In this document: positions 7,264 through 46,638 of the stretch, one piece after another
How positions within the stretch are numbered: the stretch's first letter is position 1
Layout: every line of letters begins with the position of its first letter
From: a virus
Strand: one strand, 5' to 3'
Virus record (IMG/VR): IMGVR_UViG_3300036820_000008
Span: 30,580 to 94,579 of that record
DNA: 64,000 bases
Notes under the pieces: model-generated
What the model was told of the DNA's origin: nothing
Seen by the model: the letters and a program-made list of their open reading frames with translations, nothing else
The model's database searches: none
Position numbers and translations under genes: made by a program

Positions 7264-7836
7264 TGGAGGACTCCTACTCTACGCGGGCACTAAGCTAAGC
7301 GTACCGCGTTCCCGGCTCGCGCGCTACCCTAACGGCGAAAACCGCTTTACCGGCTAGAACACCCGAACTTGTGATTCGGGTATCGTACATTGCAATACGC
7401 GCAACTGCCGTTTATGGCATGCCAGAGTCTGGTCCAATTCCAAGTTGGCCAGATAGAGATGTATTTTTAGCCTTTCTCGCGGTGCCAGTTTCCTGTTGTG
7501 TACCAGCGCTCGAAGTTTTCGGGGAACTCCTGGTATGCTTTCCTGATCTTGCGCCAGCGACGCTTCCAGGCCCACCTATCGAAGTTGTACACCCACGTAG
7601 CGTACAGCATAGCGTAGACCTCCCTGATGTGCTGCATCATCATCCTTCTCCTCTCGTTCTCCATCTGAGATCGTTCAGGGCCAGCGAGAATGGAATGGCG
7701 GCATAAACCCATTCGCTGTTTCCTGCCCTGGCCTGCGAAAGCCTGAGCGACAGGAACCTAGCCGTGTTCACGCCTACGTGCGTAAGCTTGTTTCCCTCGA
7801 CCAGGTTCCTGTTGTTCTCTGCCAGGTTCCTGCGCA

Positions 7837-8082
7837 TCAGAACGAACTCGACCCTTTGGCGATCTTGCGGAATCTGTCGGCGAGTGTTCGCTCTCCCATT
7901 GGCCTTGGGACGGGCACTGACGTCAATTGTCTTGTCCTAGCGTTGTATCCTGCGTTGGTGACAGCCTTGGCTGCAGTTACTGGTGCGCTCGCCCCTCCGG
8001 TGAGCACAAAAGCGAACAAGTGCCATCCTTTGTGGAGACGCTTGTCCTTGCGTGCGATAGCTACCTGAACGTTGCCGCCCAT
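7837..8082 (-). CDS. Small membrane-associated hypothetical protein
   Basis: Hydrophobic HLFAFVLTGG segment; GGAG RBS. Confidence 0.6.
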   Translation of the reverse strand: MGGNVQVAIARKDKRLHKGWHLFAFVLTGGASAPVTAAKAVTNAGYNARTRQLTSVPVPRPMGERTLADRFRKIAKGSSSF

Positions 8083-8092
8083 CTCTTTCTCC

Positions 8093-9108
8093 CTAGAACG
8101 ATATCGCCCTTATCCAACCGTCTTCTCGTATGGTGTAGTATCCTGCTATGCTGACGTACGGTTGTTCGCACATCAGCTCGTGGAAAAGGCATTCTTCCAA
8201 ATCAATTCCTGATCCACGCTCATCGTCTGTATGCGCCATCCAAAACCCGGAATTGGGGTCGATGTACACGACATGAAGCTTGCCGAGGCCAAGATCAGCC
8301 TGGATTTTCTTCACCTGATCTATTGTCAAGTATGGCCTCTTTTAACGCAATCATTCCCCGAGAAACTCCCCGAGGATCCTGTGCACAATCGCTATCTCAG
8401 CGCGCGTAAGGTCTGTTATGGTGAATCCGTGGCTCGGGCCGTGCTTGTAGAATGTTACTCCATATCCCTGTCTTATGCTGTGCGGTTCTGGCTTGATAGT
8501 GACGTCGAAGCCATCCGTTACCTCTGGCTGTATTACGGGCTTCGGCTTGACTCTGCTCTTGCGAACCGGACGCGTTACCTTTGGCATGATTACTTCTTGT
8601 CCAGTGTTGCATGGTGCCTTACCGGACACTCGTCGTTTGCGTGTATCGCCCCGATCAGCGAGTCGAGGCGGTCATAGTACATGTCATCTGTGATCACCTC
8701 AGAGTTGAAGTCATTGTCGATGCGCTTCCCTGATTCCGTAGATAGCGCGTACTCCTCGCATTCGGTTTCATGCTGGGGAATACGCAGTTTTCTCTCTGCC
8801 TTTTTCTTAAGGCCAGCTTCGACATCTATGTTAGCCCATTCTGCAATCAGCGCCTTGAGGTTGAAAGCTTCTTGCTGGACATCTTCCGCTGACCTGTATA
8901 TCTGGAGAAGAGTCTCCTTCTTCTTGTCTTCGGTTTCATCCATGTAGCTGCCGTAACGCCATGATGTCTGTATATTGCGCAGACCAGACCGGATCTTCCG
9001 GATATGGGCTGACATGGCACGATCTTTCTCGGTCACATCACGAGATCGTCTGTAGGGCATTATTCCTCGCCTGCTCTCTGCATATTGGACATCGACGGCT
9101 TGCACCAC
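8093..9108 (-). other. Three hypothetical genes (8093-8329, 8351-~8588, 8590-~9062)
   Basis: Operon tiling; GGAG-type RBSs. Confidence 0.55.
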
Positions 9109-9373
9109 CCTGGTTCTTAAGCTGTCTCTCTCGGTTACGGTCTCCGGGTTCAGTCTTGGCTACCGTCCATCCTATTCCTCGCTGCACCGCCACCGAAAGC
9201 ATTCTTGCTCCTGTGCCTCCTGCGTGATGGGATAGTCTTGACTCTAGTGACTTTGCCCATCCTGTATAGTGCCTTGCGCGCTGTCGGACATGAATTGGTG
9301 AATCTAGGTGCAGCAGGTAAACTACGCCCATTTCGCCAGTATTCGGCTCGCCCCGTAGCGCACGATACGTCAC
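9038..9373 (-). CDS. GIY-YIG family endonuclease (leaderless)
   Basis: VYLLH...HYTG...RL..H..G.GAR...ERQLK; GTG start 6 nt after TACGAT. Confidence 0.82.
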   Translation of the reverse strand: MTYRALRGEPNTGEMGVVYLLHLDSPIHVRQRARHYTGWAKSLESRLSHHAGGTGARMLSVAVQRGIGWTVAKTEPGDRNRERQLKNQGGASRRCPICREQARNNALQTIS

Positions 9374-9379
9374 GGCCCT

Positions 9380-9395
9380 ATCGTACCTTATGCAA
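9380..9395 (-). promoter_or_regulatory. Promoter TGCATAAGG-TACGAT
   Basis: Same motif as at 17517, 18585, 22516 and 23504. Confidence 0.7.
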
Positions 9396-9553
9396 CGGGA
9401 ATAGCGCTACCCTATCTTACGAGCATTTTACGTGAAGGGTACTACTAATGTAACACCATACAGCCAGGAATATACCTACACCTTAGCCTCCGGTGCATGG
9501 CAACATGGCCATAGTGGCACGGTATGTCTTTGCGGTACCGTTTACCCATGCAC

Positions 9554-11698
9554 CTATTTGTATAACTCATAATCGCTAACCCCCTGCTTTACGTCCATGA
9601 CCCAGTTCCAACCCTGGGTTCCCGGCTTCCCCCGTTCGCGAATGGCGACAGATTTAATACCGAGTGACTTCTTCGCTTTGTTTATGGTACCATGATTGGC
9701 AGTCACGCCAGACGCCTTGATCTCCCTGATGGCATCAGCAGCATCCCAAACTTCTTGGTGCTCGAACATGGACAGGAGTACCTCTATAATTTCCTCCTGC
9801 ACTATTGGCGCTGGGCCACGGCGCGTCTTTACCTCGGAGCCAGCTAGCTCGTCGGCGCTTAGCGTCAGTTCGCCTAGCCATTTGATGCATGGCGCCATAT
9901 TGCCGTCAGTGTCGGCAACGACACTACTATCCTGGATCGTATACGCGAGGGTGTATCCAGGACGACGACTTAGATGGTTGTTCTTTACCTGGGTGATGCC
10001 GAACACCCTGCCGTCGCAGTCGAACTTGGTCGCCTTCTCCTCGGGTACCTCACCGCTGACAAGCTGTATACGTGATACAGCACCGAATGCGATCGAGCCA
10101 CCTCCACGATGCGCAGCCTTGAGTGTTGTGTCCTTGTTGTAATGTCTCACGAATACGGCGCTACACCCTACGTCAGAGAGCATAGCGCTTAGCGGCGCTA
10201 GCGCCTGGCGGACGCTCGCGTCGTTGTTGCTGTTCACCTTCTCACCGAGAAATGCAGAGATAGGGTCGACAATAACTAGCTGTATGCGGTAAGCTACGAT
10301 CCAGTTCCTTAGTTTCTGAACACTCCTGGGGAAGCTTACCAGTTCATCGCCAGAGTAGGCGAGGGCATCCCTTCCCTTTTTCTTTTTCAGGGTCAGAGCC
10401 GGTCGGTACACACGACTCATATCAGCTCCGGCAGCCTCTAGGCGTCCGGCCGTTACACGATCGCTGTCCTCGGGAGCTAGCAGCAGAACTGATATCGCTC
10501 CCTGTGTACTGTCAGAGTCATCTGGCATATCTCTGCCGCGCGTCATCCTTGCCCCTACATCTAGGGTAACAAGGGACTTACCGTTACCAGCGTCACCATC
10601 AAGGATTGTTATGTCCCCTACTGCTATATACCTGCTCCATAGCCAGCTGCTAAGGCCACGATCTATTTCAGAGAATGGGGTAAGGCCCATTGGCACGGCA
10701 CGAGCTACGCTAGGACCCTCTAGGATAGACAGCTCTTCATCTGTTGCGTCTGGGATCACCCGTCCGCTGCGATGAAAGAGTGTAAGAAGCTCTCTGTCCG
10801 GGTTCCTTCCGCGAACCGGATACCATGGTCGTTTTGCGTCGTACACCGGCATATCAGCAGCGAGTTGCCTCAGCAGCACGAGTATGTCAGGCTTGTCGTA
10901 ACCCTTGCGCTCGAGCTCGTGGACGTACCGGAGAAGACTTGACCTCTGTTCCCCTGACTCAGCCTTTATGCACTCAGCTCTGAGCTTGTCTGTAGAAGCT
11001 CTGTTCCCGTGAACACCAGTCTGTCTCGTAGATCGTTGTGACTCTATCGCAGCAAGAATGTACGATGATATTTCCTCTGACGATGGATCGCCGTCAGGTG
11101 CCTTTATTGGCTCTATCCACTTGTAGGTGCCCATTCGTATGCCTTTGTCGGCATATCCTCCGGGAAGAATTCCATTCTCTCCCTCGGCCCCCTTGACTGG
11201 CCTTATCGTCGGAGGGATGAATACGAACCCACGACCACTACCCTCTGGATTGCCGCCCTTCAGGTCGATGCCCGGCATAAATCCGTTGTGGCTACCTATC
11301 CCAAGAGCTGCGATATACAGGTGCGTGCCGCCACTTGGGGTCTTGGCCATTCCGTATACTTTCGGGGCCGACTCTCCAAGTTCCTCCGACATTCTGTTGA
11401 AAGAGAACTTGCCGCCGTTCCTCGGGTCGATGTCTATGACATCAAACGTTATGCCGCAGACCGCGGCCATCGCGTCCCCCGGCCGATAGCCTGCGATAAC
11501 ATCGTAGTCAGCGGGGTAACGCTGCCAGCGCGCCCATCTCGTATCGTTCCTGTCAGGGTTTCCATCTTCATCTACTCTTGCCGGGAAAACAGGCATTCCG
11601 AATCGAACTAGTCTTCTTGCCGCGAGGAGCGCAGCGTCACGGCGCTCCTCCGAATCGGCCGAAATCGCGCGGTTTCCGGGACGATCGGCTATAATCAT
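9554..11698 (-). CDS. Bifunctional primase-polymerase fused to an AAA/RecA-like helicase
   Basis: VIDIDPRNGG, TPSGGTHLY, GFVFIPPT (Prim-Pol); GDAGNGKS Walker A, LVIVDP Walker B, RHYNK. Confidence 0.92.
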   Translation of the reverse strand: MIIADRPGNRAISADSEERRDAALLAARRLVRFGMPVFPARVDEDGNPDRNDTRWARWQRYPADYDVIAGYRPGDAMAAVCGITFDVIDIDPRNGGKFSFNRMSEELGESAPKVYGMAKTPSGGTHLYIAALGIGSHNGFMPGIDLKGGNPEGSGRGFVFIPPTIRPVKGAEGENGILPGGYADKGIRMGTYKWIEPIKAPDGDPSSEEISSYILAAIESQRSTRQTGVHGNRASTDKLRAECIKAESGEQRSSLLRYVHELERKGYDKPDILVLLRQLAADMPVYDAKRPWYPVRGRNPDRELLTLFHRSGRVIPDATDEELSILEGPSVARAVPMGLTPFSEIDRGLSSWLWSRYIAVGDITILDGDAGNGKSLVTLDVGARMTRGRDMPDDSDSTQGAISVLLLAPEDSDRVTAGRLEAAGADMSRVYRPALTLKKKKGRDALAYSGDELVSFPRSVQKLRNWIVAYRIQLVIVDPISAFLGEKVNSNNDASVRQALAPLSAMLSDVGCSAVFVRHYNKDTTLKAAHRGGGSIAFGAVSRIQLVSGEVPEEKATKFDCDGRVFGITQVKNNHLSRRPGYTLAYTIQDSSVVADTDGNMAPCIKWLGELTLSADELAGSEVKTRRGPAPIVQEEIIEVLLSMFEHQEVWDAADAIREIKASGVTANHGTINKAKKSLGIKSVAIRERGKPGTQGWNWVMDVKQGVSDYELYK

Positions 11699-11731
11699 AA
11701 GTGGGCAGGACCTCCGGGCTCGGGCTTAGCT

Positions 11732-11749
11732 AGCGGTAACCTTACCGCT
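11732..11749. promoter_or_regulatory. Palindrome AGCGGTAA-CC-TTACCGCT between divergent genes (overlapping -10 elements or operator)
   Basis: 8-bp inverted repeat; reads GG-TAACCT on + and GG-TAAGGT on -. Confidence 0.55.
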
Positions 11750-11797
11750 CCGATCGGGGGTCCGCCCGAGAAACCCTAATACGCAGAAAGGGAGCAA

Positions 11798-12256: not shown

Positions 12257-12871
12257 GTGTACACTGGCGTCCCTTCTTACATGTCTTACTGTGATGATAG
12301 CGGTAACGTCTTGACACCTCCACACCTGAACATGATAGCCCTCGACCCCGGAGGGACAACTGGTATCTGTATAGCCCAGGTACCGCGCATGTCTGTTTAC
12401 GGAAGCAAGCCAGGACGCTGGCTCCGGCTTGAGTGCCGAGAGGTTACCGGAGACGAGGACGTGCAGGTCGACAGTATCTGCCGTATCATCCGAGAGGTAC
12501 AGAGTCTCGACTATGGGATCGGGCCAGCTGTCGTAGGAGAGCAGTTCGACAACGATAGTCCGTTCAACGACGACGACGTATTCTCGCCTGTAAGGATTAT
12601 GGCCAAGCTCGAGTACGCACGTCACCTCGGCAAGACGGGTGATTCTAAGATTGTCTACCAGACGCGCGGAATGGCCAAGAGCACAGCTACCGATGATCGT
12701 CTGCGAGCCTGGGGTCTGTACGAGGAGACCGTAGGAAGCATGCACAAACGAGACGCCACTCGACATCTCATAACCATGCTTCGGAGGGCGCGTAAGTCGG
12801 CCAGACTACGCGACCGGCTCTGGAATTCGATGGACGACGGCATGATGGCGAGGGGGTATACGGTCGTCTAG
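12257..12871 (+). CDS. RuvC-like Holliday junction resolvase
   Basis: IALDPGGTTG, VVGEQF, H.RDATRH; true start may be near 12332. Confidence 0.8.
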   Translation: MYTGVPSYMSYCDDSGNVLTPPHLNMIALDPGGTTGICIAQVPRMSVYGSKPGRWLRLECREVTGDEDVQVDSICRIIREVQSLDYGIGPAVVGEQFDNDSPFNDDDVFSPVRIMAKLEYARHLGKTGDSKIVYQTRGMAKSTATDDRLRAWGLYEETVGSMHKRDATRHLITMLRRARKSARLRDRLWNSMDDGMMARGYTVV

Positions 12872-12906
12872 GCTCGCACGTACCGAGCGCGGCTAGGGCC
12901 GGTAGC

Positions 12907-14577
12907 CTACGGGCTACCGGCCTCTTCCGTCCCCGTAGGGGAGAGCTCCACATCCGGATTAACGTGCCATCCTATCTGGCACGGGATGCACCACAGCCCT
13001 GAATCGCCGGTTGTTCTCGTGCGACACAGGGGGCATATTCCTTCTGACAGCGCAGCAAGATACATTGCCTCATCCTTCGGGATAAGGATGGTCTCATGCT
13101 GAGCGGTTATGTTTTGGCCCGACCAGACCCAGTGCGTCTTGTATCCCGAAACTCTACCGTTCAATATCTGCATCTTCCCCTGCTCCTCGGATCAGCGGCG
13201 CGGATATCTTCATGCTAATGTACCAGGTCGACTTTACGTCACCCCGCTTTGTGCCGTAGTCATGCCACTGGACGCCGTCCCATATAGGCGTGCCATCCGT
13301 ACCTGTGATATGCGCAAAGCCTTTGAGCGCGCCCTCGGCCTCATGTCCCATTCTGGCCTCGATAATCATGTCTCCGCCTACGAATGTGATGGATTCGATA
13401 TCACCGGATGCATCGCCAATCGTCAGTGTGCCTATGCCACTCATATCTCACCAGCCTCTTTCTTCGCTTTCTCTGTGGCCGTCATTATCTTCCTGCGCCA
13501 TTCAACCCAGTAAAGCATCCATCCGTACATTGGGCCGTACAGAATGAGCACCAATGTACAGCATACCATCACAAGCCATCCAAAGCCGTTGAGCTGGTTG
13601 CCATGGACGTGCGTGAATGCCATGATGTCACCGACTATAAATCCCATAGTAGATAGTCCGATAAAGAAGTACCGGACGGCATCCTCTGCCCAGGAACAGT
13701 CTGCCTCCAGGGTTGAGATCTGCTTATACCGAAGTGTTCTTTTCTGCAGGCGGGCAATCTTGTCTTTCTTATTCTTCACCATTCTTCTTGCCCTATCGTC
13801 TGATATCTCGGCCTTTGATTTCTTCCTGCTATTGTAATCGAACGGCATAATTCCCCTGTGTGATCATCACCTTCGTCATCTGGCTGATCCATCGGTTCCT
13901 CACATGATGCCCTTGGAATGCTGCGCCGTATATGCATGGGCATGGTACATACGGCGTACGTGATCAGACGGGCACTTGCTGCTGTTGAAGTGGCAGCCGC
14001 ACCGAGTGCATATATGGATGGCTAGCCCGAGCATGTCAGGGGTTGAATAGTCGCACCATTCCTTGCCGATCAGCCTAAGCCAAGGTCGCCGATGAATCCA
14101 TTCTCTTGTCTTTTGCATTGCTCGCCCCTCTCGGCGGTGCCAGTATCGCCTCTCCGGACAGTGTTGTGCCTATCCGTGCACCAGGAAGCAGGAACAAGTT
14201 GCCGGTTGACTGTCCTCCGGGACAGCCACAGCAATTGTCCTTGGCATGCCTACCATGCTCACAGCGATCGAGGTCCTCTAGAAGAGGCTTCATGATGGCC
14301 ATCTCTTTTCCTGTTCGGGTGACGGAACTGAGTGTCCATTTACGAATGGGGCAATTAGATCCTTGTAACCTTTCGGCGGGTCCTCGCGGCCGTCGGATGC
14401 TGCTGACCTTGCTATCGCAAGAGCATCCTCTACACTTAGGCCTCCGATGTCCATGCAATGATCGTAAACGGCATCAAGGGCATTCTGGTACATATCAGAA
14501 GCACTTACGCCCTTGTCTGCGTCTTCCATCATGGACTTCTCGGCAATCGATATTGCCTGCTCTAGGACCGGATGCAT
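12907..14577 (-). other. Cluster of small hypothetical genes (12907-13173, 13154-13444, 13441-13848 two-TM, 13900-14118, 14075-~14303, 14290-14577)
   Basis: Coupled tiling; several Cys-rich; 13441-13848 has two hydrophobic helices. Confidence 0.6.
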
Positions 14578-14811
14578 GATCTTCCCCTGTCTACCCGCGC
14601 CTAGGGCTAGGGTACCGGCTAGTCGGTAGTCGCGCTAGTCTCGGTATTCGGCGGCTCCTGGTGGGATACGTACTCGTAGTAGATCGCCATTCCGCCCGGA
14701 AGAACAGGATCTACTGGCATCGTCTTCACGGCAATAGTGATGATGGAGCCAGCCGGTATGTCTTCTGGCATATTGCAAAGAATTCTGCGTACTTTGTTCA
14801 CTATTCCCCTC

Positions 14812-15405: not shown

Positions 15406-16251
15406 TTCTTCTTGGCCTGGAGTACGAGAACTTCTCGTCCCCAATGTATATTTGGCGTCTTATCTTGAACCATGAGTGGCATCGGTCGCACATTGCCGAC
15501 AACATGAGACCTGTTGATACATGTCCCCTTACTCTGCATGTTGTGTGTTTGTGCAGGAATGCCCTTACCCTGATTATCCACATGATAATTATGCCATTTC
15601 TCTGTCGCCCTGGAGCTCGCCCGTAACGAGCGCTAGCCCTAGCGTAGCCGGTACGCGGTAGACCGGCTAGCGGCTCCGTACGGGCGATCTCCACCGGCTC
15701 GCCGGTACCGGCTACCGCTCCTTACTGCGGCTCGCGGGTGGGCGGGTTCGCCCTACGCTCCCGGATCCGATCTCTGTAGTATGCGGCCTCTCTGTGCACC
15801 AGACCGGTCAGTTCCTCTACGACACGGCCGTTGACGAACACAGCCCAGCTCTGGCTGTCATCGCCATTGTACTTGCGAATCGTGATCTTGTCAGCTTTCG
15901 CCATTGCCATTCTCATTCCGATTGCAAGAGTCGCCTGTTTTGGCGATGGCATGTACCGGACACTTCTCCCGATAGTTCGGGCATGCCATGAAGGCGCAGT
16001 GCGTGCCTTCCTCGATAGCTCCGACCGGACCGATCTTGCTGTGGTCACATCCTCTGTTCACATTTCCTCCTATATGGTCAGCAGGATCTCGTTCGGTTCG
16101 CAGAGTCCGCTCTCCGTGTTTACGGTCCCGCTCCATATGTTGATGCAGTCGCATCCCTGCAGCACAACAACCTTGCCTCTGTCCAGCTTACGCAGAGCCT
16201 CGATCAGGTCTGCCACTGTGTTCTTCTCTTCATCTTCCGGCATGCATGCTC

Positions 16252-17475
16252 CTAGTCGAAGAATGTATCGTACTCGTCAGGCTCGGGCAGCTCTTCCTCT
16301 GCCTCATCGAACAGTTCCTCCTGCGCCCGGACTGTCTCCATCACGTCGCATACATGCCACCCCTTGTGGGTGCTACGATCCGGGAACGTCAGGACGCTGC
16401 TCTTGCCGAGACCCATTGCCATCAGTTTCGCGATCTTGTAATCGGTCAGCTTCGGGTACATCTTCTCGTCCACGGTACGCAGGTGATCGAGCAGCGTCCG
16501 GCTCGTGAGATAGACCGGCTCAGGCTCGGCCGGTAGCGACCTCAGATATGCCCCGGCGTCCCGTACGATTTTCTGCTCGGGGAGCAGGACAGCCTTGTTG
16601 GCCGAGTCGAGCGCCAGAGCCTCGAATGCCCGCTTCCACCTCGCTGGCCACTCACCGCCCGCTGCCTTGGCGATGGACCACATTGGCCCCCATATCTGGG
16701 CCTTGCGGGATGTGAGCCTCGGGTGGATGCCGCGCAGCTGCTTGTTGTACTTCTTCAGGTCCTCGATGTTCGACCGGACCCAGGCATGCAGGCAGTCCTG
16801 AAGCTCCCGAGCCTCAGCCTCAACATCCTCGTCCAGGATGTCCTCGAGCACTACGCCCTCTGGCTTGGGGCGCATCTCCCCGATAACGCACCGGGACCTG
16901 AGATCATCTGGGGCTGCCTTGCGGAGTCCCGCGAAGAAGGCTACTCCGTAGCAGCTGATGTCCTGGGCCGTTCCGTTGCTCAGGCTCAGCGTTCCCTTCA
17001 CTGAGTATCCGTCGCATGCTATCTGGTATATCGGGTTGGTCTGGCCTCGCAGCCCGTTCTCGCCGAACACCTTGCTGATCTCATGGAAGCACAGGGTCAC
17101 CGGACCCTCGATGTACTTGGCCCTGAGAGCAAACGAGGTCGGATTGGATGACCAGCCATTCAGACTTAGGTCCTCCGCGAAGTAAAGGACCGTTGACTTG
17201 CCGCACTCCTTGAATGGACTTGTGATCAGAAAGCGCGGTACCGTCCGGCTCGCGTCTAGCGCGTGGCTGACTGCTGCGCCCATGATCACCGCATCCTTCA
17301 GCTCTCGGGATGCGTAGATCGTTCTGTCGGCCAGTTCGCTGATCCTGTCCAGCGGCTGCGGCACATTCTTCTTTACTCGCTCTTTCCGTGGCCCTGGGGT
17401 CATCGGCTCTCTTGTCGCCGCGTACTCAGACGCGACCCCGACCGCCATAGCGGCTAGCCTAACTGCTGATGCCAT
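16252..17475 (-). CDS. DUF3631-like P-loop protein
   Basis: PRFLITSPFKECGKST, RSRCV, R..QIW.P...IA..AGGEWP. Confidence 0.75.
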   Translation of the reverse strand: MASAVRLAAMAVGVASEYAATREPMTPGPRKERVKKNVPQPLDRISELADRTIYASRELKDAVIMGAAVSHALDASRTVPRFLITSPFKECGKSTVLYFAEDLSLNGWSSNPTSFALRAKYIEGPVTLCFHEISKVFGENGLRGQTNPIYQIACDGYSVKGTLSLSNGTAQDISCYGVAFFAGLRKAAPDDLRSRCVIGEMRPKPEGVVLEDILDEDVEAEARELQDCLHAWVRSNIEDLKKYNKQLRGIHPRLTSRKAQIWGPMWSIAKAAGGEWPARWKRAFEALALDSANKAVLLPEQKIVRDAGAYLRSLPAEPEPVYLTSRTLLDHLRTVDEKMYPKLTDYKIAKLMAMGLGKSSVLTFPDRSTHKGWHVCDVMETVRAQEELFDEAEEELPEPDEYDTFFD

Positions 17476-17516
17476 GATCTGTACCTTACCCCTCCGACGG
17501 GTCGTACCTTACCCCT

Positions 17517-17532
17517 AGTCTACCGTATGCAC
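17517..17532 (-). promoter_or_regulatory. Promoter GTGCATACGG-TAGACT
   Basis: Repeated motif; followed by the direct repeat GTACCTTACCCCT x2 (17481, 17504). Confidence 0.7.
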
Positions 17533-17543
17533 CCGGTAGCTCG

Positions 17544-18548
17544 CTACCGTAGCGCGTCCGGGGTCTTGCTGCCGACCCCGGTGCTGAGGTCTGCGGTGTT
17601 AGCGTGCCGGACTCCAACGCCATACGCCTGCTCGTTGAACGAGAATGTTGGTGCCTTCCGCCTGCGAGCAGGCTTGCTGTTCTTGGGGTCTTCCTCTGGC
17701 ACCTCCAGGAACATCTCGGGGTTGTCATCGCGGAATAGCGCGTCCAGATCATCGACCCTCGAGGCTAGGAGGATCTCGGTTCCTGCCTGTCGGTTGCTCT
17801 CGACCTGGCGGAGACGCTGCGTAAGCCGGGACGTGTACCCATACGCGGCGCTCTTGCGATAGGTGGCCGTTCCCCCGGCAGAGATCTTGGTCGGCTGCTC
17901 GCCCCGCTCCTTCGTCGCCTGGTAGTAAGCGCGCTTGTAGATGCCGCCGACGTGGAACTTGGTCTTGTCGTTCCCCTCGCTGTCCCGCCACATCTCGGTG
18001 CCCTCTCGCAGGCCAACCTTCGACCACCCGTACATGCGAGCGATCTCCAGCCAGTTGTACCCTGCGTTGTGGAGGCGATAGCAGTTCTCGCTCAGTGAGC
18101 TGTTCCTGTCGATGCGCGGGATCAGCACACCGAGCATGTGCAGGCGGATGGTTGTGTACAGCAGCTCGAAGTAGCGCGCGTCCGACTCGAAGCCGTACAC
18201 CTTTGCCACCCACACGCCATCCCTCCAAGCGGTGTACAGGAGAGCGCGGCACCGGCAGTGCCTGGCCACCATGTCGCACAGCGACCCGAAGTAGCCGATA
18301 ATGTCAGAGTCGCCGCCGATCTCGACCGTTATGATGATTGGCCTCGTGCGCTGCTCGGCTGGCCGGGAGGCCTCGGCCTGAGTCTCGTCGACTGCGTGCT
18401 TGAGCATCAGCGCGTCGGCCATCTCGCGATACGATGTGGCCACCTTGGGGTCGGTGTTCGGGTCCTCGGCTACTGCGATCAGCTTGCGGACCTTGCTGAG
18501 GACACTGTCGAGTGACATCTCTCGCCTGTTGTTATCCTGATCGGACAT
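17544..18548 (-). CDS. DUF2786-like protein
   Basis: LSKVRKLIAVAE...A..LMLKHAVD, VYGFESD; GAGGAG RBS. Confidence 0.78.
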   Translation of the reverse strand: MSDQDNNRREMSLDSVLSKVRKLIAVAEDPNTDPKVATSYREMADALMLKHAVDETQAEASRPAEQRTRPIIITVEIGGDSDIIGYFGSLCDMVARHCRCRALLYTAWRDGVWVAKVYGFESDARYFELLYTTIRLHMLGVLIPRIDRNSSLSENCYRLHNAGYNWLEIARMYGWSKVGLREGTEMWRDSEGNDKTKFHVGGIYKRAYYQATKERGEQPTKISAGGTATYRKSAAYGYTSRLTQRLRQVESNRQAGTEILLASRVDDLDALFRDDNPEMFLEVPEEDPKNSKPARRRKAPTFSFNEQAYGVGVRHANTADLSTGVGSKTPDALR

Positions 18549-18584
18549 TTCCTGCTCCTCTGTCGTGTGCGGGGCTATACCCCT

Positions 18585-18600
18585 ATCCTACCGTATGCAC
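18585..18600 (-). promoter_or_regulatory. Promoter GTGCATACGG-TAGGAT
   Basis: Repeated motif. Confidence 0.7.
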
Positions 18601-18687
18601 GCCACTAGGGCTAGGGGTCGGCGGGGTCCGGGTGGACGCGCTATAGGGTCGGCGTCCACCCGGTAGTCTCGGTATTCGCGGTAGTCG

Positions 18688-19098
18688 TCAGGATTCGGCT
18701 GCCTTTGTCTTATCGGGGCACCGGCTGCACGGGGCAGACGGCATTCCAGACAGGCGGCCGCATCCTTCGCATCTTTCTGGCTCCTGTGTCCAGGGCCAGA
18801 TGTCCTCCTTGAGGCCTCTGTAGAGGAGGCGGGCCATCTCGGTCTCGGTTGTGCGATAGCCTCCTATGCTTGCCTGCCGGAATAGCTCAGCGCAGGCCTC
18901 TTGCTCGCTTCCGGTACGTGCATGGCTCTGCAGGATGGACAGGAGCTTGTAAGCCATGCTGTGGTGCTCAGCGTTGGCCAGCGGTGCGCTGTTCGGCATT
19001 TTGCGGAGGGGAATCCCCTGCCTCATGTTTCTGGCAAGCTGCTCATGTCCGCCTACCTCGCGGAAGCGACGCCTGTCCTCCTCGCTCATGGCCGCCAC
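18688..19098 (-). CDS. Hypothetical protein, C-terminal Zn ribbon
   Basis: CEGC...CSRC; AAGGAGG RBS. Confidence 0.65.
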   Translation of the reverse strand: MAAMSEEDRRRFREVGGHEQLARNMRQGIPLRKMPNSAPLANAEHHSMAYKLLSILQSHARTGSEQEACAELFRQASIGGYRTTETEMARLLYRGLKEDIWPWTQEPERCEGCGRLSGMPSAPCSRCPDKTKAAES

Positions 19099-19520: not shown

Positions 19521-19744
19521 CGTCTTTGCCTCTCGGTTTGCTCGGGTAGCTATTAGCCTACTCCACTTGGAGTGCTAGCCGCTAGGGCTTAGCGGTAGCG
19601 CGTAGCACTCCCGTAAAGCGGGCAGAGCTCGCACGTACGGAGATTAGAATCGGGGTTAGGTAGCCCGGTAGGGTCGGGCTTCCGTAGGGCCTTAGCTCGG
19701 AGCTACGGGCCGTTTATGGGAGTGCTGAATTTTGCCCCCTAAAG

Positions 19745-19815: not shown

Positions 19816-20820
19816 TCACTCGTCCGTGGTGTCCTGTGTGGTGTCTTCGCTCGCGGTGTCCTGTGTGGCGTCGGTGGGGGTGTCGTCGGTTGCCTCCGCG
19901 TCCGTGGGGGCCTCCGTGAGGCCTGCGGCAGTTTCGGACTCGGTGAGCCAGTCACTTCTCTGCGGCCGGGGGAGGTGCTTCAGCCACTCGTCACGGTCGG
20001 CCGGGAAGTGGTGGATCCACTGGGCCGCGCACTGCCGGGCCTCAGCGAGCCCGCCGATGCCGGCCAGGATGCCGTTGGGGTCGGAGCCGGTAGGGTCGGC
20101 CGGGTTATCGAGGCTGTGGATTGCCGCACCGATGGCCTCGACGAGAACGAGTGCGAGGTCACGCTTGGCCTGCCGGGATGCGGACTTGCCAGTGCCTTTG
20201 CCCGATCCTGTGCCCTTGGCCGTGGCCCAGACTCCACCGAGTTTGGCGACGCAGGTGTGGATGTGGACCGCGCCGGTGTATCCGTTCTCGGCCAGCCAGG
20301 CGTCGCTGGGGTCGGGGTCGGTCATCTCCGTGCTGGGGTCCGCTGGGTCGGCCTTGGGGTGCACGGGCTGGGGAGGGGTGCCGCTGGGGTCGTCCTCCTG
20401 GGTCCAGGACTCGCGGATCTGGTCATCCCACAGCTGGCAGATGAGGTCGTGCGGATCCTCCACCAGTGCGGAGCCGGGACGCTCGTAGTCGGACTTCCGC
20501 GTGTCACGCTTGAGTATGGGGCACTTGGGGGTTTCCTCGTCGCCGGTGACGTGAACCTGGAAGTCTCCGTCCTTGAGAACGAAGCTGAGCAGGTCGCGCG
20601 GGTCCTCCACTTCGTGGGCCGGGATCTTGGCCGGGGAGAGCTTGCCGTTCTTGCGGGAGACCCGGATCTTCAGATCCTTGGCCGTGAGCCCGCACTCCGG
20701 GCAGCCAGGAAGGCTCGAGGTTGCTGCTGTGTTCGTCCTTGGGTCCGTGGAGTCACCTTCTGTCTGGGGGATGTAGACCCAGGCCTGGTTCTCACCGGCG
20801 CACTCAATGATGGTTGACAT
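19816..20820 (-). CDS. Modular early protein (Zn ribbon + domain A + domain B)
   Basis: Strong GC3 bias; shares domains with 21138-21731 and 27289-27723. Confidence 0.85.
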   Translation of the reverse strand: MSTIIECAGENQAWVYIPQTEGDSTDPRTNTAATSSLPGCPECGLTAKDLKIRVSRKNGKLSPAKIPAHEVEDPRDLLSFVLKDGDFQVHVTGDEETPKCPILKRDTRKSDYERPGSALVEDPHDLICQLWDDQIRESWTQEDDPSGTPPQPVHPKADPADPSTEMTDPDPSDAWLAENGYTGAVHIHTCVAKLGGVWATAKGTGSGKGTGKSASRQAKRDLALVLVEAIGAAIHSLDNPADPTGSDPNGILAGIGGLAEARQCAAQWIHHFPADRDEWLKHLPRPQRSDWLTESETAAGLTEAPTDAEATDDTPTDATQDTASEDTTQDTTDE

Positions 20821-21086
20821 GACTGCCTGCTTTCCTCTGGGGTTGCTGTTTGTTTGCTTTCGGTTGGTTTTCCGGGGGTTTGCTTTTGTTCTTTCGGTTC
20901 CTGCTGGTTTCTCGTCAGCCCGGCGGCTCTTACCTCGTCCCGGGCGGGACGCTAGTCAAACTATACCCTGTGATCGGCCGGTATGGGTAGGGTAGGGGGA
21001 GGATTCTTAGGCTCTATTTTCGACTACTTTGAGTTAGCATACCATGCGGTCTGCCTACGTGCAGTAACGGGTGGCTCCTGGCTGGG

Positions 21087-21126
21087 GTGTGCCGGTGTGT
21101 GCCGGTGTGTGCCGGTGTGTGCCGGT
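21087..21126. repeat. Tandem repeat (GTGTGCCGGT) x4
   Basis: Read directly. Confidence 0.9.
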
Positions 21127-21137
21127 GCTGGGGTATC

Positions 21138-21731: not shown

Positions 21732-22119
21732 AGGCGGTATTATACCTCGTCCCGTCCGGGGTCTCGTGCAACGTCTTGTGCATGTTGCGTCCTGCGTTCC
21801 CCTCCCTGCCTTCCCCGCTCTCGCGCGCGTAGGCGCGCGTATATCCCTACCCTAGGGAATTCTACGACTTCTAAACCGTTACAGTAACTTCTCACCTCCT
21901 GCAGGAGCGGGTGCTGTGTGGGGATTGGATGGGGATTGAGCGGGGGTGGAGAGGGGGCTAAATTTCCGTCCGGGCTTGTGGGAGTGTTGATGGGTCCCTT
22001 ATCATATATTGAGAATATATAGTAGGTACGTAAGAAGCTATTGAAGCTAGCGGGTATAGGGTATAGTAACTCACCCGTGCAGTCGTTTTCTGGCACGCAA
22101 CAGCCGGAAAATTTCCGAA

Positions 22120-22160
22120 GGGGTATTCAGGGGTATTCAGGGGGTATTTCAGTGGTATTT
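22120..22160. repeat. Degenerate tandem repeat GGGGTATTCA x~4
   Basis: Read directly. Confidence 0.8.
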
Positions 22161-22466
22161 ACTGTTATTTCACGTGCTTCGAGGCAGTATAAGCCGTCTT
22201 TCGGCTGTTTCGAGGTCGTTTCCAGCCATAATTAACCGTGGAAACGACCCCTGCACACATGAAAAGTGCATGATTTCAGCGATTTTCGGACGGCTGCACC
22301 GCCCACATCGCCGCAGCGTACGGGTAGAAATCGTAGGTAGTTTTCGGCCTTTTCGGGAGAAAGCTGTAATCAGTGCCGCAAACCATGTGTGCGCATCTAA
22401 ATTCGCCCATTTTCAGCACTAAATCGCCATCTCGAGGGCATAATCTGTCTCAGCAGCAGGCGAGAT

Positions 22467-22498
22467 CGTTAGCGGCGCTAAATAAGAGCCATATGCAT
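22467..22498 (+). repeat. 32-bp site, copy 1 (CGTTAGCGGCGCTAAATAAGAGCCATATGCAT)
   Basis: Matches inverted copies at 22798-22829 and 23567-23598. Confidence 0.8.
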
Positions 22499-22536
22499 CG
22501 GAATCATGGCTGTATTGCATACGGTATAATAGGGAC

Positions 22537-22759
22537 ATGAGCGCCTATGTCAACTTCGATTTTGTACGGCAAACATCACGAGAAACTGGTTTGCCTCAGG
22601 ATCCAGGCAATTGTACGGCCTCCAGAAGAGGCTGCCGAATGGCTCCTCGGCGAATTTTATCCTGGTGCAGAGCTCATCAGGGTGAAGCGTGTGGCTGCTG
22701 GCGGCAAGCCAGTCAAGATGAAAGGGCTGCAGAACAGGCCGATTCGCAGACGATCGTAG
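22537..22759 (+). pseudogene. Leaderless small gene with a 1-nt frameshift in a T4 run (~22560-22563); paralog of 23261-23497
   Basis: MSAYVNFD|LYGK aligns with MSALADYEIHGK; TGCATACGG-TATAAT-6nt-ATG. Confidence 0.6.
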
Positions 22760-22797
22760 GGGCTCGGGATGTCCGTCCACCGGGTTCTCAGAAACGA

Positions 22798-22829
22798 ATG
22801 CATAACGTTCTTAATTAGCGGCGCTAACG
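22798..22829 (-). repeat. 32-bp site, copy 2
   Basis: Reverse complement CGTTAGCGCCGCTAATTAAGAACGTTATGCAT. Confidence 0.8.
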
Positions 22830-23063
22830 GCTGTACCAGAGAATGGAACGACGAGCCTGCTAACGATATCGCCGCAGGCCCGCCGCCGTTTTCGGTTTTT
22901 CGGGGTTGTCTATTCAGGTGCTATTTTTGGCCTATTCAGGCTCCTCGCCCATGTCCTCGAGCTGAGCGTAGGCCTCCTCGAGGTCGTCTGCGAGGCCAAA
23001 GTCGACGAGTGCCTGGGCCTTGTCGTCGAATGATAGATCCTTGCCGAGATCGGACATTTTGCC

Positions 23064-23497: not shown

Positions 23498-23566
23498 AGC
23501 TCTATTATACCTCCTGCACGAGCGTATGGATAGCTTATATAAGTTCGTTATGCAGTATCCGGGTGT

Positions 23567-30690: not shown

Positions 30691-30692
30691 CG

Positions 30693-41261: not shown

Positions 41262-42751
41262 ACACTTACAGGCCCTGGGTTGATGCCCGGAAGATCGTGG
41301 CCTTGTCCACCGGGAAAGCTCCCGAGTGGTACAAGATCAAGAACCTGGCGAACGGCCCGACGCAACTATACATCTACGACGAGATCGGGTATTTCGGCCT
41401 GAGCGCTAGCGACCTTGCACGCGAGCTTGCCGAGATCAGCGGCCCGGTTGACTGCCACATCAACTCTCCCGGCGGGGAGGTGTTCGACGGCATCACGATC
41501 TACAACTGTCTGCAGGCTCGCGGCGACGTTGACGTATACATCGACGGACTCGCGGCTTCCATCGCTAGCGTCATCGCCATGGCCGGCAGAAAGGTGTTCA
41601 TAGCCAAGAACGCCAGGTTCATGGTGCACGACGGTTTCTCGATGGCCGCCGGCAATGCATCCGACATGCGTGAGATGGCCGACCGTCTGGACGACGCCAG
41701 CAACAACATCGCTTCCATCTACGCCGAGCGCACCGGTGACACGGTGGCTCACTGGCGCGAGATCATGCGTGGTGAACGCTGGTACACCGCGCAGGCTGCA
41801 ATCGATGCTGGCCTGGCTGACTCGATGATCGTACATGGCTCAGTGGCGGAGACAAGAGAGGATGCTTCTAATCACTCTCACACTCCGATGACAAACCACA
41901 TTGTGTCAGGAGACCCGACACAGACTGGCTTGAGTAATGCTGCCTCGCACCCGTACCACAGCGAGCACAGCATGATGCACGAGCCGATGACCGGCACGCA
42001 CGCCCATAACCACGCTTGCTTTGAGTGCGGCGATGGAGACGATGGCGTTCACCAGCACGCCCACATGCACGACAACGATGCCGTACACAACCATGGTCAC
42101 ATGACGCACAGCCACAGTCACGATCACGGCATCGGCGATGGTGCACATGACCATGCACACGAGGCAGGACAGAGCTCCTATGGTGCTCACAGCCACGACC
42201 ACGTGCACCACAATGCCTCTGGCCACATCGACCCGGATCATGACGGTGACAATGACGCCACGGCGGCTGGCGACACCGACCACGATTACTGGGCGGGGCC
42301 GGTGACGAACGCAGCTGACAAGGAGCAACGCGCGTACCTGAGGGCTCACATAGATCTGCACGATGCCTCGTACGACAGCACTCCTTGGGATGGTAGTGCT
42401 GCCATGTCGGCCGCCGCTCACAGCGACAATCCGGCCTCGGCCCTCTCCGCAATATGTGCTGGCCGCAGGAGTGGTGATGCCTCGACCGAGGCGGCGCACG
42501 CGCTCCCGCACCACAAGCACCCGGGATCTCCGCCGAACAAGGCCGGAGTAACTGCTGCCCTCGGGCGGCTGAATCAGACACAGGGTCTGAGCAACAAGAG
42601 CGCCGCTGAGGCGCACCTGAAAGCCCACGCGTCTGCATGGGCGAGCGGCTCCGAGGACCACGACCACACCGACATTGGTGACGGTCCGTGGATCAACCCC
42701 ACGGACGAAGAAATAGCCAATTGGACAAAGAACATGAAGGGAATCAAGTAA
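41258..42751 (+). CDS. ClpP-type prohead protease with a His-rich insert and C-terminal extension
   Basis: IYDEIG, INSPGG.VFDG, DGLAASIASVIAMAG, MVHD, ERWYTA..A...GLAD. Confidence 0.92.
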   Translation: MNTYRPWVDARKIVALSTGKAPEWYKIKNLANGPTQLYIYDEIGYFGLSASDLARELAEISGPVDCHINSPGGEVFDGITIYNCLQARGDVDVYIDGLAASIASVIAMAGRKVFIAKNARFMVHDGFSMAAGNASDMREMADRLDDASNNIASIYAERTGDTVAHWREIMRGERWYTAQAAIDAGLADSMIVHGSVAETREDASNHSHTPMTNHIVSGDPTQTGLSNAASHPYHSEHSMMHEPMTGTHAHNHACFECGDGDDGVHQHAHMHDNDAVHNHGHMTHSHSHDHGIGDGAHDHAHEAGQSSYGAHSHDHVHHNASGHIDPDHDGDNDATAAGDTDHDYWAGPVTNAADKEQRAYLRAHIDLHDASYDSTPWDGSAAMSAAAHSDNPASALSAICAGRRSGDASTEAAHALPHHKHPGSPPNKAGVTAALGRLNQTQGLSNKSAAEAHLKAHASAWASGSEDHDHTDIGDGPWINPTDEEIANWTKNMKGIK

Positions 42752-44748: not shown

Positions 44749-44788
44749 ACCAGCTGGGCATTGAAACCCCCAGCGGAGAGGTATTGAA

Positions 44789-45262
44789 ATGTCTGGAATG
44801 GAGAGCCTGGGAAGGCTAAACAATGTCATCCCTGTCGCCGCTGGCGCTGCCTTCAAGATGCGGGGCGCGTCCGTCGCACAGATCGTCTGCACAATCGCGT
44901 CGGGTTCCGACACCTTCACGGTGAGTGAGGCCGACAACTTCGCGATGGACGGAAGTGCCACCCTCAACTGCATCAAGAACATCTACTGGGCTACCGCGCT
45001 GGACGGCACCGAGGCGTGGAACAAGTTCACCTGGGCTGGCGGCACGCCTCTCGATGCGATCACCCTGAACGCGTCCAGCACGGGTACGCCGTCAGCGCTG
45101 TCTGACGCCAAGGTCGGCGTGTTCCACATCTTCACGTCGCAGCTTTCGGATCCGAACGACTACCTGCAGGTGAACGTGGGTGGCTCCGGTCTCGTCGCTG
45201 TTATCCTTGGCGACCTGGTCTCCCAGAGGAACCCGGCCAACCTCGAAGTCCTCGGCTCCTGA
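44789..45262 (+). CDS. Head-associated structural protein
   Basis: Position, codon bias, MESLGRL.N...L..QR.PANL. Confidence 0.7.
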   Translation: MSGMESLGRLNNVIPVAAGAAFKMRGASVAQIVCTIASGSDTFTVSEADNFAMDGSATLNCIKNIYWATALDGTEAWNKFTWAGGTPLDAITLNASSTGTPSALSDAKVGVFHIFTSQLSDPNDYLQVNVGGSGLVAVILGDLVSQRNPANLEVLGS

Positions 45263-45302
45263 CCGGTACCAGCATATAGTACCGAACAGGAGGTAAGGCA
45301 AG

Positions 45303-45785
45303 ATGAGTGCTCTATCAGGCTACAACCTCAAGCAGCTGCTTGGGGAGAACGGCATTGGGGTTGCACCGCAGCTTGCGGTTCAGCCTGCCAAGGTCCTGCC
45401 CGCTACTGCTACAGGTACGCTTTTCACGGTGTCTGGCGCGGTCGTGGTGCTAGGCCTGACTGGCGTCATATCCACAGTGTTCTCGGCAACGGATGTTAAT
45501 CCGACGCTGGGGATCACGAATGAACCGGCAGCTATAGCAGCGGCTCCAGCTGCTGCATTCACCGATAACGCCGTCGGCGATGCCATCAAACTGCCGTCTG
45601 TCCTCGGCGGAGATCTACCGGCCTCGGTTCATGCAAAGGGGTCGGGAGCTTCTCTGGACGCCTTCGTAGTCGAGAACACCAACATCACGATAACAACGGA
45701 CGCGACGAACACTGGCGCGATCACCTGGGTCCTGGCCTGGGTGCCGCTGAACCGCAAGGTTCCCGGTTCCGTCTCGGCCCCGTAG
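45303..45785 (+). CDS. Putative capsid decoration protein (paralog 1)
   Basis: LP.T....LFTVSG...TGAITW...WVPL. Confidence 0.7.
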   Translation: MSALSGYNLKQLLGENGIGVAPQLAVQPAKVLPATATGTLFTVSGAVVVLGLTGVISTVFSATDVNPTLGITNEPAAIAAAPAAAFTDNAVGDAIKLPSVLGGDLPASVHAKGSGASLDAFVVENTNITITTDATNTGAITWVLAWVPLNRKVPGSVSAP

Positions 45786-45795
45786 GAGGTGTGAT

Positions 45796-46296
45796 ATGTC
45801 GGTAATCATCCAGGGGTACCAGCTGCGAGAAATCGCATTTGGCGAGCAGGTCATCACCGAGGACCTCACACTCCCGCAGACAGGAACAGCCGATCTGTTC
45901 ACGGTGTCCGGCGGCCTCGTTCTGCTAACGAGTTTGATCGGCGTTGTCACGACGGTGATCGCCAGCAGCGACCCGGAGCTTACGCTTGGTCTGCACCCAT
46001 CGGCCGGAACAGCGGAGACGGCTGGTCTTGCGACCTCGGAAGCCCTGACGTCGGCAGAGGTTGGATCTCTGATCGGTCTGTCGGACACCTCCGTCGTGTC
46101 TGGCGACCCTGACGTATTCACCGTCGGCCCGCTGCAGGTTGGCGTGCACGCCGGTAATGGGCTGTCTCTTATCAAGCCAATGGTAATCCCGTCGGGATTC
46201 ATCACATGGACAACTGGTGCAAATAAGACCGGTGCGATCAAGTGGTACCTGACTTACGTACCGCTTGACACTGGCGCGTCGGTCGCGGCGAGCTAG
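45796..46296 (+). CDS. Putative capsid decoration protein (paralog 2)
   Basis: LP.T....LFTVSG...TGAIKW...YVPL. Confidence 0.7.
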   Translation: MSVIIQGYQLREIAFGEQVITEDLTLPQTGTADLFTVSGGLVLLTSLIGVVTTVIASSDPELTLGLHPSAGTAETAGLATSEALTSAEVGSLIGLSDTSVVSGDPDVFTVGPLQVGVHAGNGLSLIKPMVIPSGFITWTTGANKTGAIKWYLTYVPLDTGASVAAS

Positions 46297-46305
46297 GGGT
46301 CTGAC

Positions 46306-46638
46306 ATGTGGGATTGTAAGCACTGTGGGTCCAGGATGATCGCAGGCACGCTTGTCGTGTGCCCACAGTGCCGCAAGGCAAGGTCTCCGGGTTCTGCGGA
46401 AACTGAGCCATCGGAAGCGGTAGGGGAAGGATCCGCAGAAGCCGTAGGCTCCGAAATAAGCCCCTCGGCCGACGCTACCCCTACCGCTACCCCCGCGACG
46501 CCCGAAACCGGCCTAGGCTCGGAGCTCCCACCGGACGCCAAGGGATTTACCCCGCCCTCGGCCGGGCCGTCGGAGGCGGATCCGTCTGCCGGAGGCTTTC
46601 TCACGAAAGGATGGGGTGAGTTACATGCCCCGCGTTAG
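46306..46638 (+). CDS. Zn-ribbon protein with low-complexity tail
   Basis: WDCKHC...CPQC. Confidence 0.65.
   Translation: MWDCKHCGSRMIAGTLVVCPQCRKARSPGSAETEPSEAVGEGSAEAVGSEISPSADATPTATPATPETGLGSELPPDAKGFTPPSAGPSEADPSAGGFLTKGWGELHAPR

Follow-up and report, generated by a model that had tools for sequence, protein, structure and literature searches.

Islands lacking CpA and TpG in a 94.6-kb soil phage genome are held by selection on the DNA sequence

Introduction

Why should a phage whose DNA uses the dinucleotides CA and TG freely contain a set of short stretches from which both are missing? The question is raised by a stretch of 64,000 nucleotides (referred to here as the window) that comprises bases 30580-94579 of IMG/VR virus record IMGVR_UViG_3300036820_000008, a complete 94,579-bp genome with terminal repeats (G000 below). 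An earlier note made from the letters of the window had described tracts that are poor in CA and TG and rich in TA. It explained them either as scars of CpA-directed C-to-T deamination or as the product of selection that keeps promoters free of a dinucleotide that is modified or bound. Here we report that the CA/TG-free islands are real, specific and conserved, and that they are held by selection on the nucleotide sequence. About a dozen islands of 60-250 bp look like an undescribed sequence code kept by selection, and a description of such islands in phages was not found in full-text literature searching.

Results

CA/TG-free runs exceed chance expectation

Together CA and TG make up 13.7% of the dinucleotides in the window, and with an odds ratio of 1.12 they are slightly over-represented genome-wide. 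The window contains eight CA/TG-free runs of at least 70 bases (70-93 bases), located at 7289-7360, 11707-11784, 12878-12949, 14589-14659, 15612-15692, 19633-19717, 21808-21882, and 46437-46529. In 50 first-order Markov simulations, the longest CA/TG-free run had a mean of 56 bases and the largest was 79 bases, and runs of at least 45 bases, of which 14 were observed in the window, numbered 4.4 on average. The whole genome has 23 runs of at least 45 bases, and 13 of at least 60 bases compared with 0.0 in simulations. By a joint island criterion, which calls for an 80-bp span with at most one CA/TG and at least five TA, the whole genome yielded 13 blocks and every simulation yielded none.

This excess is specific to CA/TG and is local. 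Four control pairs of similar frequency (AC/GT, GA/TC, AG/CT, and CC/GG) gave no runs above expectation in G000 or in its relatives G003 and G004, and gave isolated excess runs only in the relatives G001 and G002. Depletion of CA/TG is limited to approximately 1.5% of the genome. Tandem repeats or low complexity were considered as a cause and rejected, as only four short and weak arrays touch islands. The hand counts of CA, TG, and TA in the earlier note were reproduced exactly for all 15 tracts that it listed, including those at 7266-7358 (CA 1, TG 0, TA 9), 14591-14658 (CA 0, TG 0, TA 8), and 46411-46586 (CA 3, TG 0, TA 8). Some members of its list of similar tracts are weaker, such as 17430-17580 with 3 CA and 8 TG.

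Island composition reflects the missing dinucleotides

Composition was computed over 1,199 island bases. The G+C content of the islands is 63% compared with 57% for the genome; TA accounts for 9.9% of island dinucleotides compared with 3.9% in the genome (2.5 times), CG accounts for 13.5% compared with 8.1% (1.7 times), and the AT dinucleotide is reduced. Because CA and TG are absent and the total of pyrimidine-purine steps is approximately unchanged (23% compared with 25%), every pyrimidine-purine step in an island is self-complementary, that is, either TA or CG. The excess of TA and CG is a by-product of the exclusion of CA/TG, since both are one transition away from CA/TG. The bases that flank TA are mostly G or C, with CTAC, GTAG, CTAG, and GTAC accounting for 66 of 117 occurrences. 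(A single binding motif was rejected as the basis of the islands, as the enriched words GCTACC, CGGTAG, CCCTAC, and CCGGTA merely mirror TA between G or C.) Indices of the kind used for repeat-induced point mutation (RIP) are extreme, with TpA/ApT at 117/27 = 4.3 and (CpA+TpG)/(ApC+GpT) at 0. Moreover, the spacing from TA to TA is periodic at approximately 5.7 and 11.3 bp (54 islands from six genomes; z of approximately 5, overall p of approximately 0.02), a phasing that suggests a role in DNA bending, with bendability in step with the helix.

Islands are shared by a clade and resist new CA and TG

As the earlier note had proposed, we looked for syntenic islands in related phages, and found islands at matching positions in five syntenic relatives (65-80% DNA identity); G001-G004 have 5-13 each. 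One relative, G001, is an 88-kb IMG/VR contig that is syntenic with G000 at 65-80% DNA identity and has 12 CA/TG-free runs of at least 60 bases, up to 190 bp, at matching places. More distant relatives have 11 islands (G002), 9 islands (G003), and 6 islands (G004, one of 244 bp); G008 has 4 compared with 1.5 in simulations, and G005 (3 by the joint criterion) and G006 have fewer. In G010 and G011, which have only structural genes in common with G000, we found 0 islands. Judged from shared genes, the islands are a trait of the clade that shares the replication module, because the genomes that carry islands share that module and the two that share structural genes alone have none. (In G004, which has terminal repeats, the largest islands, one of 299 bp with just two CA/TG and one a 244-bp run, adjoin the genome ends.)

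Nine pairs of matching islands from G000 and G001 are 69-92% identical. These pairs differ by 193 substitutions and many insertions or deletions, and the number of new CA or TG dinucleotides is 0; approximately 31% of random substitutions in such sequence would create a CA or TG, which gives a neutral P of approximately 1e-32. The ratio of transitions to transversions is 0.40-0.50 inside islands compared with 0.74 outside, and a scarcity of transitions is what would be expected if transitions at TA and CG steps were forbidden.

Codon choice in overlapping genes gives way to the constraint

Two islands within genes were compared with codon-level controls in which the amino acids were kept and the codons were resampled from the codon usage of the genome. 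One of them, at 46437-46587, does lie inside an open reading frame (ORF), as the earlier note had it; the ORF spans 46306-46638 and encodes a zinc-ribbon protein whose disordered tail the island covers. The other, at genome 20574-20735, corresponds to the disordered linker of an SSB-like protein that is encoded outside the window (genome 20541-21419) and that has a long acidic block, a linker rich in Lys, Ala, Pro, and Thr, and a C-terminal DEEPPF tip. The SSB linker contains 2 CA+TG compared with 15.7 ± 3.0 expected, and the zinc-ribbon tail contains 3 compared with 14.2 ± 2.9 expected (P < 5e-5 for each). Permuting the islands' own synonymous codons gave P values of approximately 0.007-0.009, so the order of the codons avoids CA/TG too; for example, a codon that precedes a codon with an initial A ends in T rather than C (GCT-AAG, GCT-ACC). 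Control segments of the SSB and zinc-ribbon genes are not depleted of CA/TG, and amino-acid composition as the cause of the coding islands is ruled out by the resampling and the permutation. The zinc-ribbon tail of G001 is likewise CA/TG-free (166 bp). G002 and G003 also have CA/TG-free runs after the capsid gene, which are candidate counterparts of the zinc-ribbon tail.

The constraint thus overrides the usual choice of codons and crosses the boundaries between coding and non-coding DNA. Divergence without new CA/TG, the codon resampling, and the lowered ratio of transitions to transversions all bear out the part of the earlier note that invoked selection, and continuing purifying selection on the DNA itself very probably excludes the CpA/TpG step from the islands. 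The other part, a scar of CpA-directed C-to-T deamination, did not hold up: the islands have more G+C than the genome (63% compared with 57%) and more CpG (13.5% compared with 8.1%), they are not duplicated, and they have taken 193 substitutions without gaining CA/TG. The mutational reading is therefore rejected in both of its forms, a past burst of mutation because the islands stay CA/TG-free across those 193 substitutions in relatives that differ by 15-30%, and a continuing ratchet because it would erode CpG, yet CpG is enriched. (Reassignment of TAG was considered and rejected; a suppressor tRNA is absent, the tRNAs being just two tRNA-Met and one tRNA-Tyr, and several islands retain TAA stops in every frame.)

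Islands lie mostly upstream of gene starts

Approximately two-thirds of the islands lie between co-directional genes, 0-300 nt upstream of the next start, and several reach right up to the ribosome site. The remaining third, approximately, is in coding DNA near the 3' ends of genes; at least three islands fall within the 3' part of a gene where a disordered protein tail is encoded. Those upstream of starts are found mainly in the replication and nucleotide-metabolism module, and the immediate-early left end (window 22,400-29,000) has almost no islands. The features concerned, in window coordinates, are as follows.

7289-7360, minus strand: intergenic island of 72 bp with 7 TA, which ends 25 nt upstream of the GTG start of gene 6472-7263 and is matched by an island at 41659-41756 in G001.
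11639-11784, minus strand: leader of the primase-helicase gene, with two CA/TG-free runs of 58 and 78 bp.
12870-12949, minus strand: E1-type island (see below) between convergent genes, with inverted end boxes and an 11-bp internal hairpin (fold z = -2.2).
14589-14659, minus strand: E2-type island (see below) of 71 bp with 8 TA, which ends 11 nt before the ATG at 14577 and has the shared 15-mer.
15612-15692, minus strand: E1-type island whose end boxes pair over approximately 14 of 17 positions to give a long hairpin (z = -4.0).
17481-17567, minus strand: island that fills all of the 68-bp gap in front of the ATG at 17475 and enters the 3' end of the upstream gene 17544-18548.
18570-18690, minus strand: near-island (4 CA, 2 TG, 12 TA) that lies upstream of the ATG at 18548 and contains both the E2 downstream box and the other copy of the 15-mer.
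19574-19717, minus strand: E1-type island with an exact 16-mer box B at 19625-19640, upstream of the start at 19520.
20985-21030, minus strand: short island of 46 bp with 5 TA, upstream of gene 19816-20820.
21808-21882, minus strand: island of 75 bp with 8 TA, approximately 76 nt upstream of the start at 21731.
22315-22365, minus strand: short island of 51 bp with 4 TA, within the long non-coding stretch 21732-22931.
46437-46587, plus strand: coding island of the late module, in the disordered tail of the zinc-ribbon protein of ORF 46306-46638.

The earlier note was right to place the islands near gene starts and to have them run into the 3' ends of upstream genes, although the latter overlap occurs only sometimes. 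Its more precise statement, that most lie just upstream of -10 elements, was not borne out, as a scan for sigma-70-type sites found 8 promoter-like sites compared with 7.4 in shuffles. Sigma-70-type promoters and intrinsic terminators were accordingly rejected as the basis of the islands; their counts are the same as in shuffles and none is inside an island.

The most conserved island is that at 11639-11784, which is 92% identical to its counterpart in G001 and so exceeds the primase-helicase gene itself (approximately 74% DNA identity). Its two runs are parted solely by one ATG, which is absent from G001, and the island extends as far as a GTG near 11638. The true start of the primase-helicase gene is probably the GTG near 11638, behind GGAGGA, rather than the ATG at 11698, because G001 lacks the upstream ATG and keeps the GTG and the ribosome site. 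A TATAAT-like box precedes the start at 21731, which appears to be leaderless. Window 21087-21127, in the gap that lies upstream of gene 19816-20820, is a perfect tandem repeat with four copies of the 10-bp unit GTGTGCCGGT; its plus strand has a very high TG content, in contrast to the adjoining island.

Short boxes recur in a subset of islands

A subset of islands, termed E1, has two conserved boxes that are 60-65 nt apart, box A (GGAGCTCCGAAATAMGG) and box B (CCGTACGTGCGAGCTCC), the outer parts of which are inverted repeats around a GAGCTC palindrome. The exact 16-mer core of box B is present in three copies in G000 and one in G001, and variants of the boxes are found in G000, G001, and G003 and in the late coding island, where E1-like boxes are in the sense orientation and the start of the next ORF is at 46616. 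All seven copies of box A that are inside islands (from three genomes) are in the sense orientation, that is, in the direction of transcription. A second pair of boxes, E2, consists of GAATACCGAGACTAC followed at a variable distance by CCCTAGCCCTAG, and links the islands at 14589-14659 and 18570-18690 with one island of G001. (The 15-mer that the earlier note had reported at 14636 and 18664 is exact.) The interiors of the islands vary, and the sequence that they have in common is limited to short boxes, with no long repeats.

The constraint appears to act on the duplex

CA and TG are equally absent from the islands. This equal strictness makes the constraint symmetric between the strands. The late island on the plus strand has the same pattern as the early islands on the minus strand, and CA is missing over whole islands although the predicted folds leave much of them unpaired. 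The island at 12878-12949 sits between two convergent genes, and across the leaders of the whole genome, stretches without TG ahead of starts do not exceed in length those without GT, TC, or CT, which led us to reject a general avoidance of upstream start codons. On these grounds we favour a constraint that acts on the duplex rather than on RNA.

Conserved RNA structure was rejected as an account of the islands. Three of nine islands fold better than shuffles and six fold no better, no island had a match in Rfam at the gathering score, and an alignment of ten E1 copies has only an invariant 5-bp closing stem and no compensatory change. Note that an RNA role is possible for some islands, because box A is in the sense orientation and islands lie close to start codons.

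The phage and its probable host

The 94.6-kb phage is a siphovirus whose origin is soil metagenomes, with a G+C content of 56.8%. Its minus strand carries a long block of replication and nucleotide-metabolism genes, which includes a split Pol III alpha with a separate PHP protein, ThyX, the SSB-like protein, a PD-(D/E)XK nuclease, an SNF2 helicase, a ParB/KorB-like helix-turn-helix (HTH) protein, and a primase-polymerase/helicase; the plus strand carries a block of siphovirus structural genes, among them portal, Clp protease, capsid, and a 1,890-aa tape measure. The replicative polymerase, at genome 8794-12740, is Pol III alpha, and its PHP domain is on a separate upstream gene (307 aa). The two tRNA-Met and one tRNA-Tyr genes are at genome 25115-26289, in the early region immediately upstream of the window.

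No near DNA match was found among 50,697 phage records, and a search of metagenome contigs for relatives of the primase gave no match. The capsid protein shares 47% identity with its counterpart in a Streptomyces phage and 48% with an Actinosynnema prophage protein, and the phage encodes an Rpf-like transglycosylase and PASTA domains; for these reasons the host is probably an actinobacterium. Among public sequencing runs, the phage sequence is present in four soil-metagenome DNA runs only, and 0 RNA runs are listed with the sequence. The contigs of these four runs are identical to the window, so they provide no population variants.

The immediate-early region has three copies of a 13-bp palindrome, TTAGCGGCGCTAA, at window 22469-22481, 22815-22827, and 23584-23596 (six matches at up to two mismatches, compared with 1.7 expected). 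We take this palindrome to resemble the KorB operator of plasmid RK2. The protein encoded at 3857-4981 on the minus strand, with ParB_N and HTH_ParB/KorB domains, could bind TTAGCGGCGCTAA. The palindrome was rejected as an island motif, as it is located outside islands.

Discussion

What are the islands for? Our best lead is the idea, already raised in the earlier note, of a dinucleotide that is modified or bound, the modification being putative. Taken as a whole, the best explanation combines selection on the DNA with a putative TpG-directed modification, and we would assign it a probability of roughly 0.35. In this phage and its host, some process that acts on double-stranded DNA would recognise TpG/CpA. 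That process may be a TpG-directed modification of thymine in phage DNA, and the islands would then be windows kept free of modification so that regulatory or replication proteins read plain DNA. The specific proposal that the islands are modification-free windows is a tentative one. We are more hesitant about extending it to this group of actinophages as a whole, whose virion DNA could conceivably carry a putative TpG/CpA-directed modification with the islands as hard-wired unmodified windows, the mirror image of CpG islands. The phage thymine dioxygenase 5mYOX176, which is activated by a ParB homologue, prefers NTG (PMC13229309), and TpG-directed modification of phage DNA is therefore a real possibility.

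Candidate modification genes are present in the genome, which has ThyX, an FAD amine-oxidase-like oxidoreductase, and a DUF1599-like lead in one gene cluster. The last of these comes from a protein atlas, for a 176-aa protein, and Pfam DUF1599 itself has no match in the genome. The genome further encodes an exonuclease and a class-I methyltransferase-like protein, and it gives a weak GNAT match. None of these six, ThyX included, is tied to TG. PDB sequence searches with three candidate modification genes gave nothing useful, and neither 5-HMUDK nor aGPT-Pplase turned up in Pfam and PHROG scans of 60 proteins, scans that included no search aimed at these families. Two further ideas were rejected: a 263-aa protein near ParB as a modification gene, as it is merely a DUF6011 protein with few relatives, and an adenine modification of the Mu Mom type (SAS motif), as GA followed by G or C is common in islands.

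Several observations weigh against this explanation. No enzyme for TpG-directed modification was found in the genome. Tet_JBP (PF12851) has no match at E ≤ 1 in the complete genome, and many divergent members of the dioxygenases escape the PF12851 model (PMC13229309). The ParB-like protein (ParB_N) has an HTH_ParB/KorB DNA-binding domain, unlike the published activators, which lack one, and a cupin-like protein has no match in G001-G004. G005 has genes for ThyX and the FAD-oxidoreductase but just three islands. The orientation of box A, the same in seven of seven copies, is not predicted by a purely symmetric DNA signal. Avoidance of six-base palindromes points in the expected direction without settling the matter: in island-bearing genomes, 2 of 92 palindromes with CA/TG are strongly avoided compared with 33 of 234 without, a contrast that is absent from relatives that have few islands or none (8 of 63 and 20 of 141). 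The comparison is suggestive only and treats related genomes as independent. Counted by hand as unique palindromes, the figures are approximately 2 of 16 compared with 14 of 48, which we judged not significant.

The alternatives differ in how much of the evidence they can accommodate. We consider unlikely, and yet the strongest of them, a DNA-shape code in which a phage or host protein binds the E1 end boxes (GAGCTC) and bends or wraps the DNA between them, so that phased TA and CG are needed and CA and TG have the wrong geometry. The periodic spacing of TA at approximately 5.7 and 11.3 bp favours such a code, as do the conserved boxes at a fixed distance around a variable interior and the many island runs of 70-95 bp. 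However, most islands lack the boxes, which are confined to G000, G001, and G003, the periodicity is modest, and no binding protein was identified. Moreover, CA and TG steps are themselves flexible, and we know of no mechanical rule that forbids them.

A requirement at the level of RNA strikes us as rather improbable. According to it, the RNA of leaders and between genes must lack UG, either to be free of AUG, GUG, and UUG starts or to be free of a nuclease site, and CA is lost by pairing with UG in stems or through the same constraint on an antisense transcript. The abutment of islands on ribosome sites and start codons fits well here, and several islands are followed on the sense strand by a first TG that belongs to the start codon itself; the constant orientation of box A and the three islands that fold better than shuffles can be counted on the same side. 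Against this, CA is absent throughout even though much of it would be unpaired, shuffles fold as well in six of nine cases, and the E1 alignment lacks covariation and Rfam lacks a match. Upstream start codons are not generally avoided, one island is between convergent genes, and a ban on start codons is hard to square with islands inside translated sequence.

Avoidance of a DNA enzyme that needs TG/CA, such as a nicking or cutting nuclease or the template recognition of the phage primase-polymerase, seems to us improbable. The islands would, on that account, be zones without cutting or priming. It predicts the same strand-symmetric exclusion as selection combined with TpG-directed modification, and the most conserved island immediately precedes the primase-helicase gene. 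A requirement for GTG is a property of the pRN1 enzyme. Yet a dinucleotide nuclease would destroy the remaining genome, where the CA/TG odds ratio is 1.12, and it is hard to see what would be gained from a priming-free zone of 100 bp.

Selfish palindromic mini-elements, like miniature inverted-repeat transposable elements (MITEs) or the Rickettsia palindromic elements, would have inherited their composition from a founder copy while spreading between genes and, in frame, into coding regions that tolerate them. The E1 copies, with their inverted end boxes, do occur both between genes and inside two genes, but the interiors share little sequence, the positions match in genomes that have diverged by 20-35% with no presence/absence differences at the sites compared, and neutral decay of old copies would have brought back CA/TG; we therefore hold this origin to be very improbable. 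Least of all do we credit a mutational footprint of CpA-directed cytosine deamination (RIP or exposed promoter DNA), for which the extreme RIP indices of 4.3 and 0 speak, given that G+C and CpG are raised, that the islands are not repeats, that the property survives 193 substitutions in two lineages, and that codon order in the coding islands avoids CA/TG (P of approximately 0.007-0.009).

If selection combined with a TpG-directed modification is the right explanation, the islands would flag the sites open to polymerases, regulators, or replication proteins, and an epigenetic pattern would be written in the primary sequence, even to the point of shaping the codon choice of overlapping genes. 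Local exclusion of a dinucleotide would then be a new kind of cis-acting signal in viral genomes, one that motif searches cannot see, since within its restricted alphabet the sequence is free to vary. The signal is strong enough to dictate both the choice of synonymous codons and their order in overlapping genes. It would also offer a purely computational route to regulatory DNA, and possibly to dinucleotide-directed modification, in uncultured phages, and since islands are easy to scan for, the idea can be quickly tested across metagenomic viromes.

Comparison with known systems places the islands more precisely. With fungal RIP they share the loss of CpA/TpG, the gain of TpA, and the extreme RIP indices; RIP, however, hits duplicated DNA, lowers G+C, and is a mutational scar, whereas the islands are single-copy, are GC-rich and CpG-rich relative to the genome, and are held by selection across diverged genomes. 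The likeness to 5mYOX176 and its ParB partner (PMC13229309) is that a phage enzyme picks thymines by their TpG context and that the present phage has a ParB-like protein; the differences are that no Tet/JBP dioxygenase was found here and that the ParB-like protein has an HTH domain. As in the avoidance of restriction sites, selection strips a short word from phage DNA, but in its classical form such avoidance extends over the whole genome and targets words of 4-6 bp, whereas the islands reflect the local removal of a dinucleotide whose odds ratio is 1.12. Classical avoidance is itself evident in G000, in which GGGCCC occurs 4 times compared with 50 expected, GGCGCC 5 compared with 50, CCCGGG 7 compared with 50, and ACGCGT 5 compared with 29, and the avoided palindromes differ between genomes (CTCGAG occurs 0 times in G002 and once in G004).

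Phage T7 has approximately ten RNase III hairpins between genes, just upstream of starts, in early and late operons. The islands are similar to these in number, in their intergenic placement near starts, and in their presence in early and late modules; the T7 sites differ in that they are defined by RNA structure, without exclusion of a dinucleotide, whereas the islands mostly fold as shuffles do and lack covariation. A formal parallel is found in the CpG islands of vertebrates, which are also discrete, promoter-proximal stretches set apart by one dinucleotide and which are tied to dinucleotide-directed base modification. In the phage the polarity is reversed, as the islands lack a dinucleotide whose frequency is normal elsewhere, and the modification is putative.

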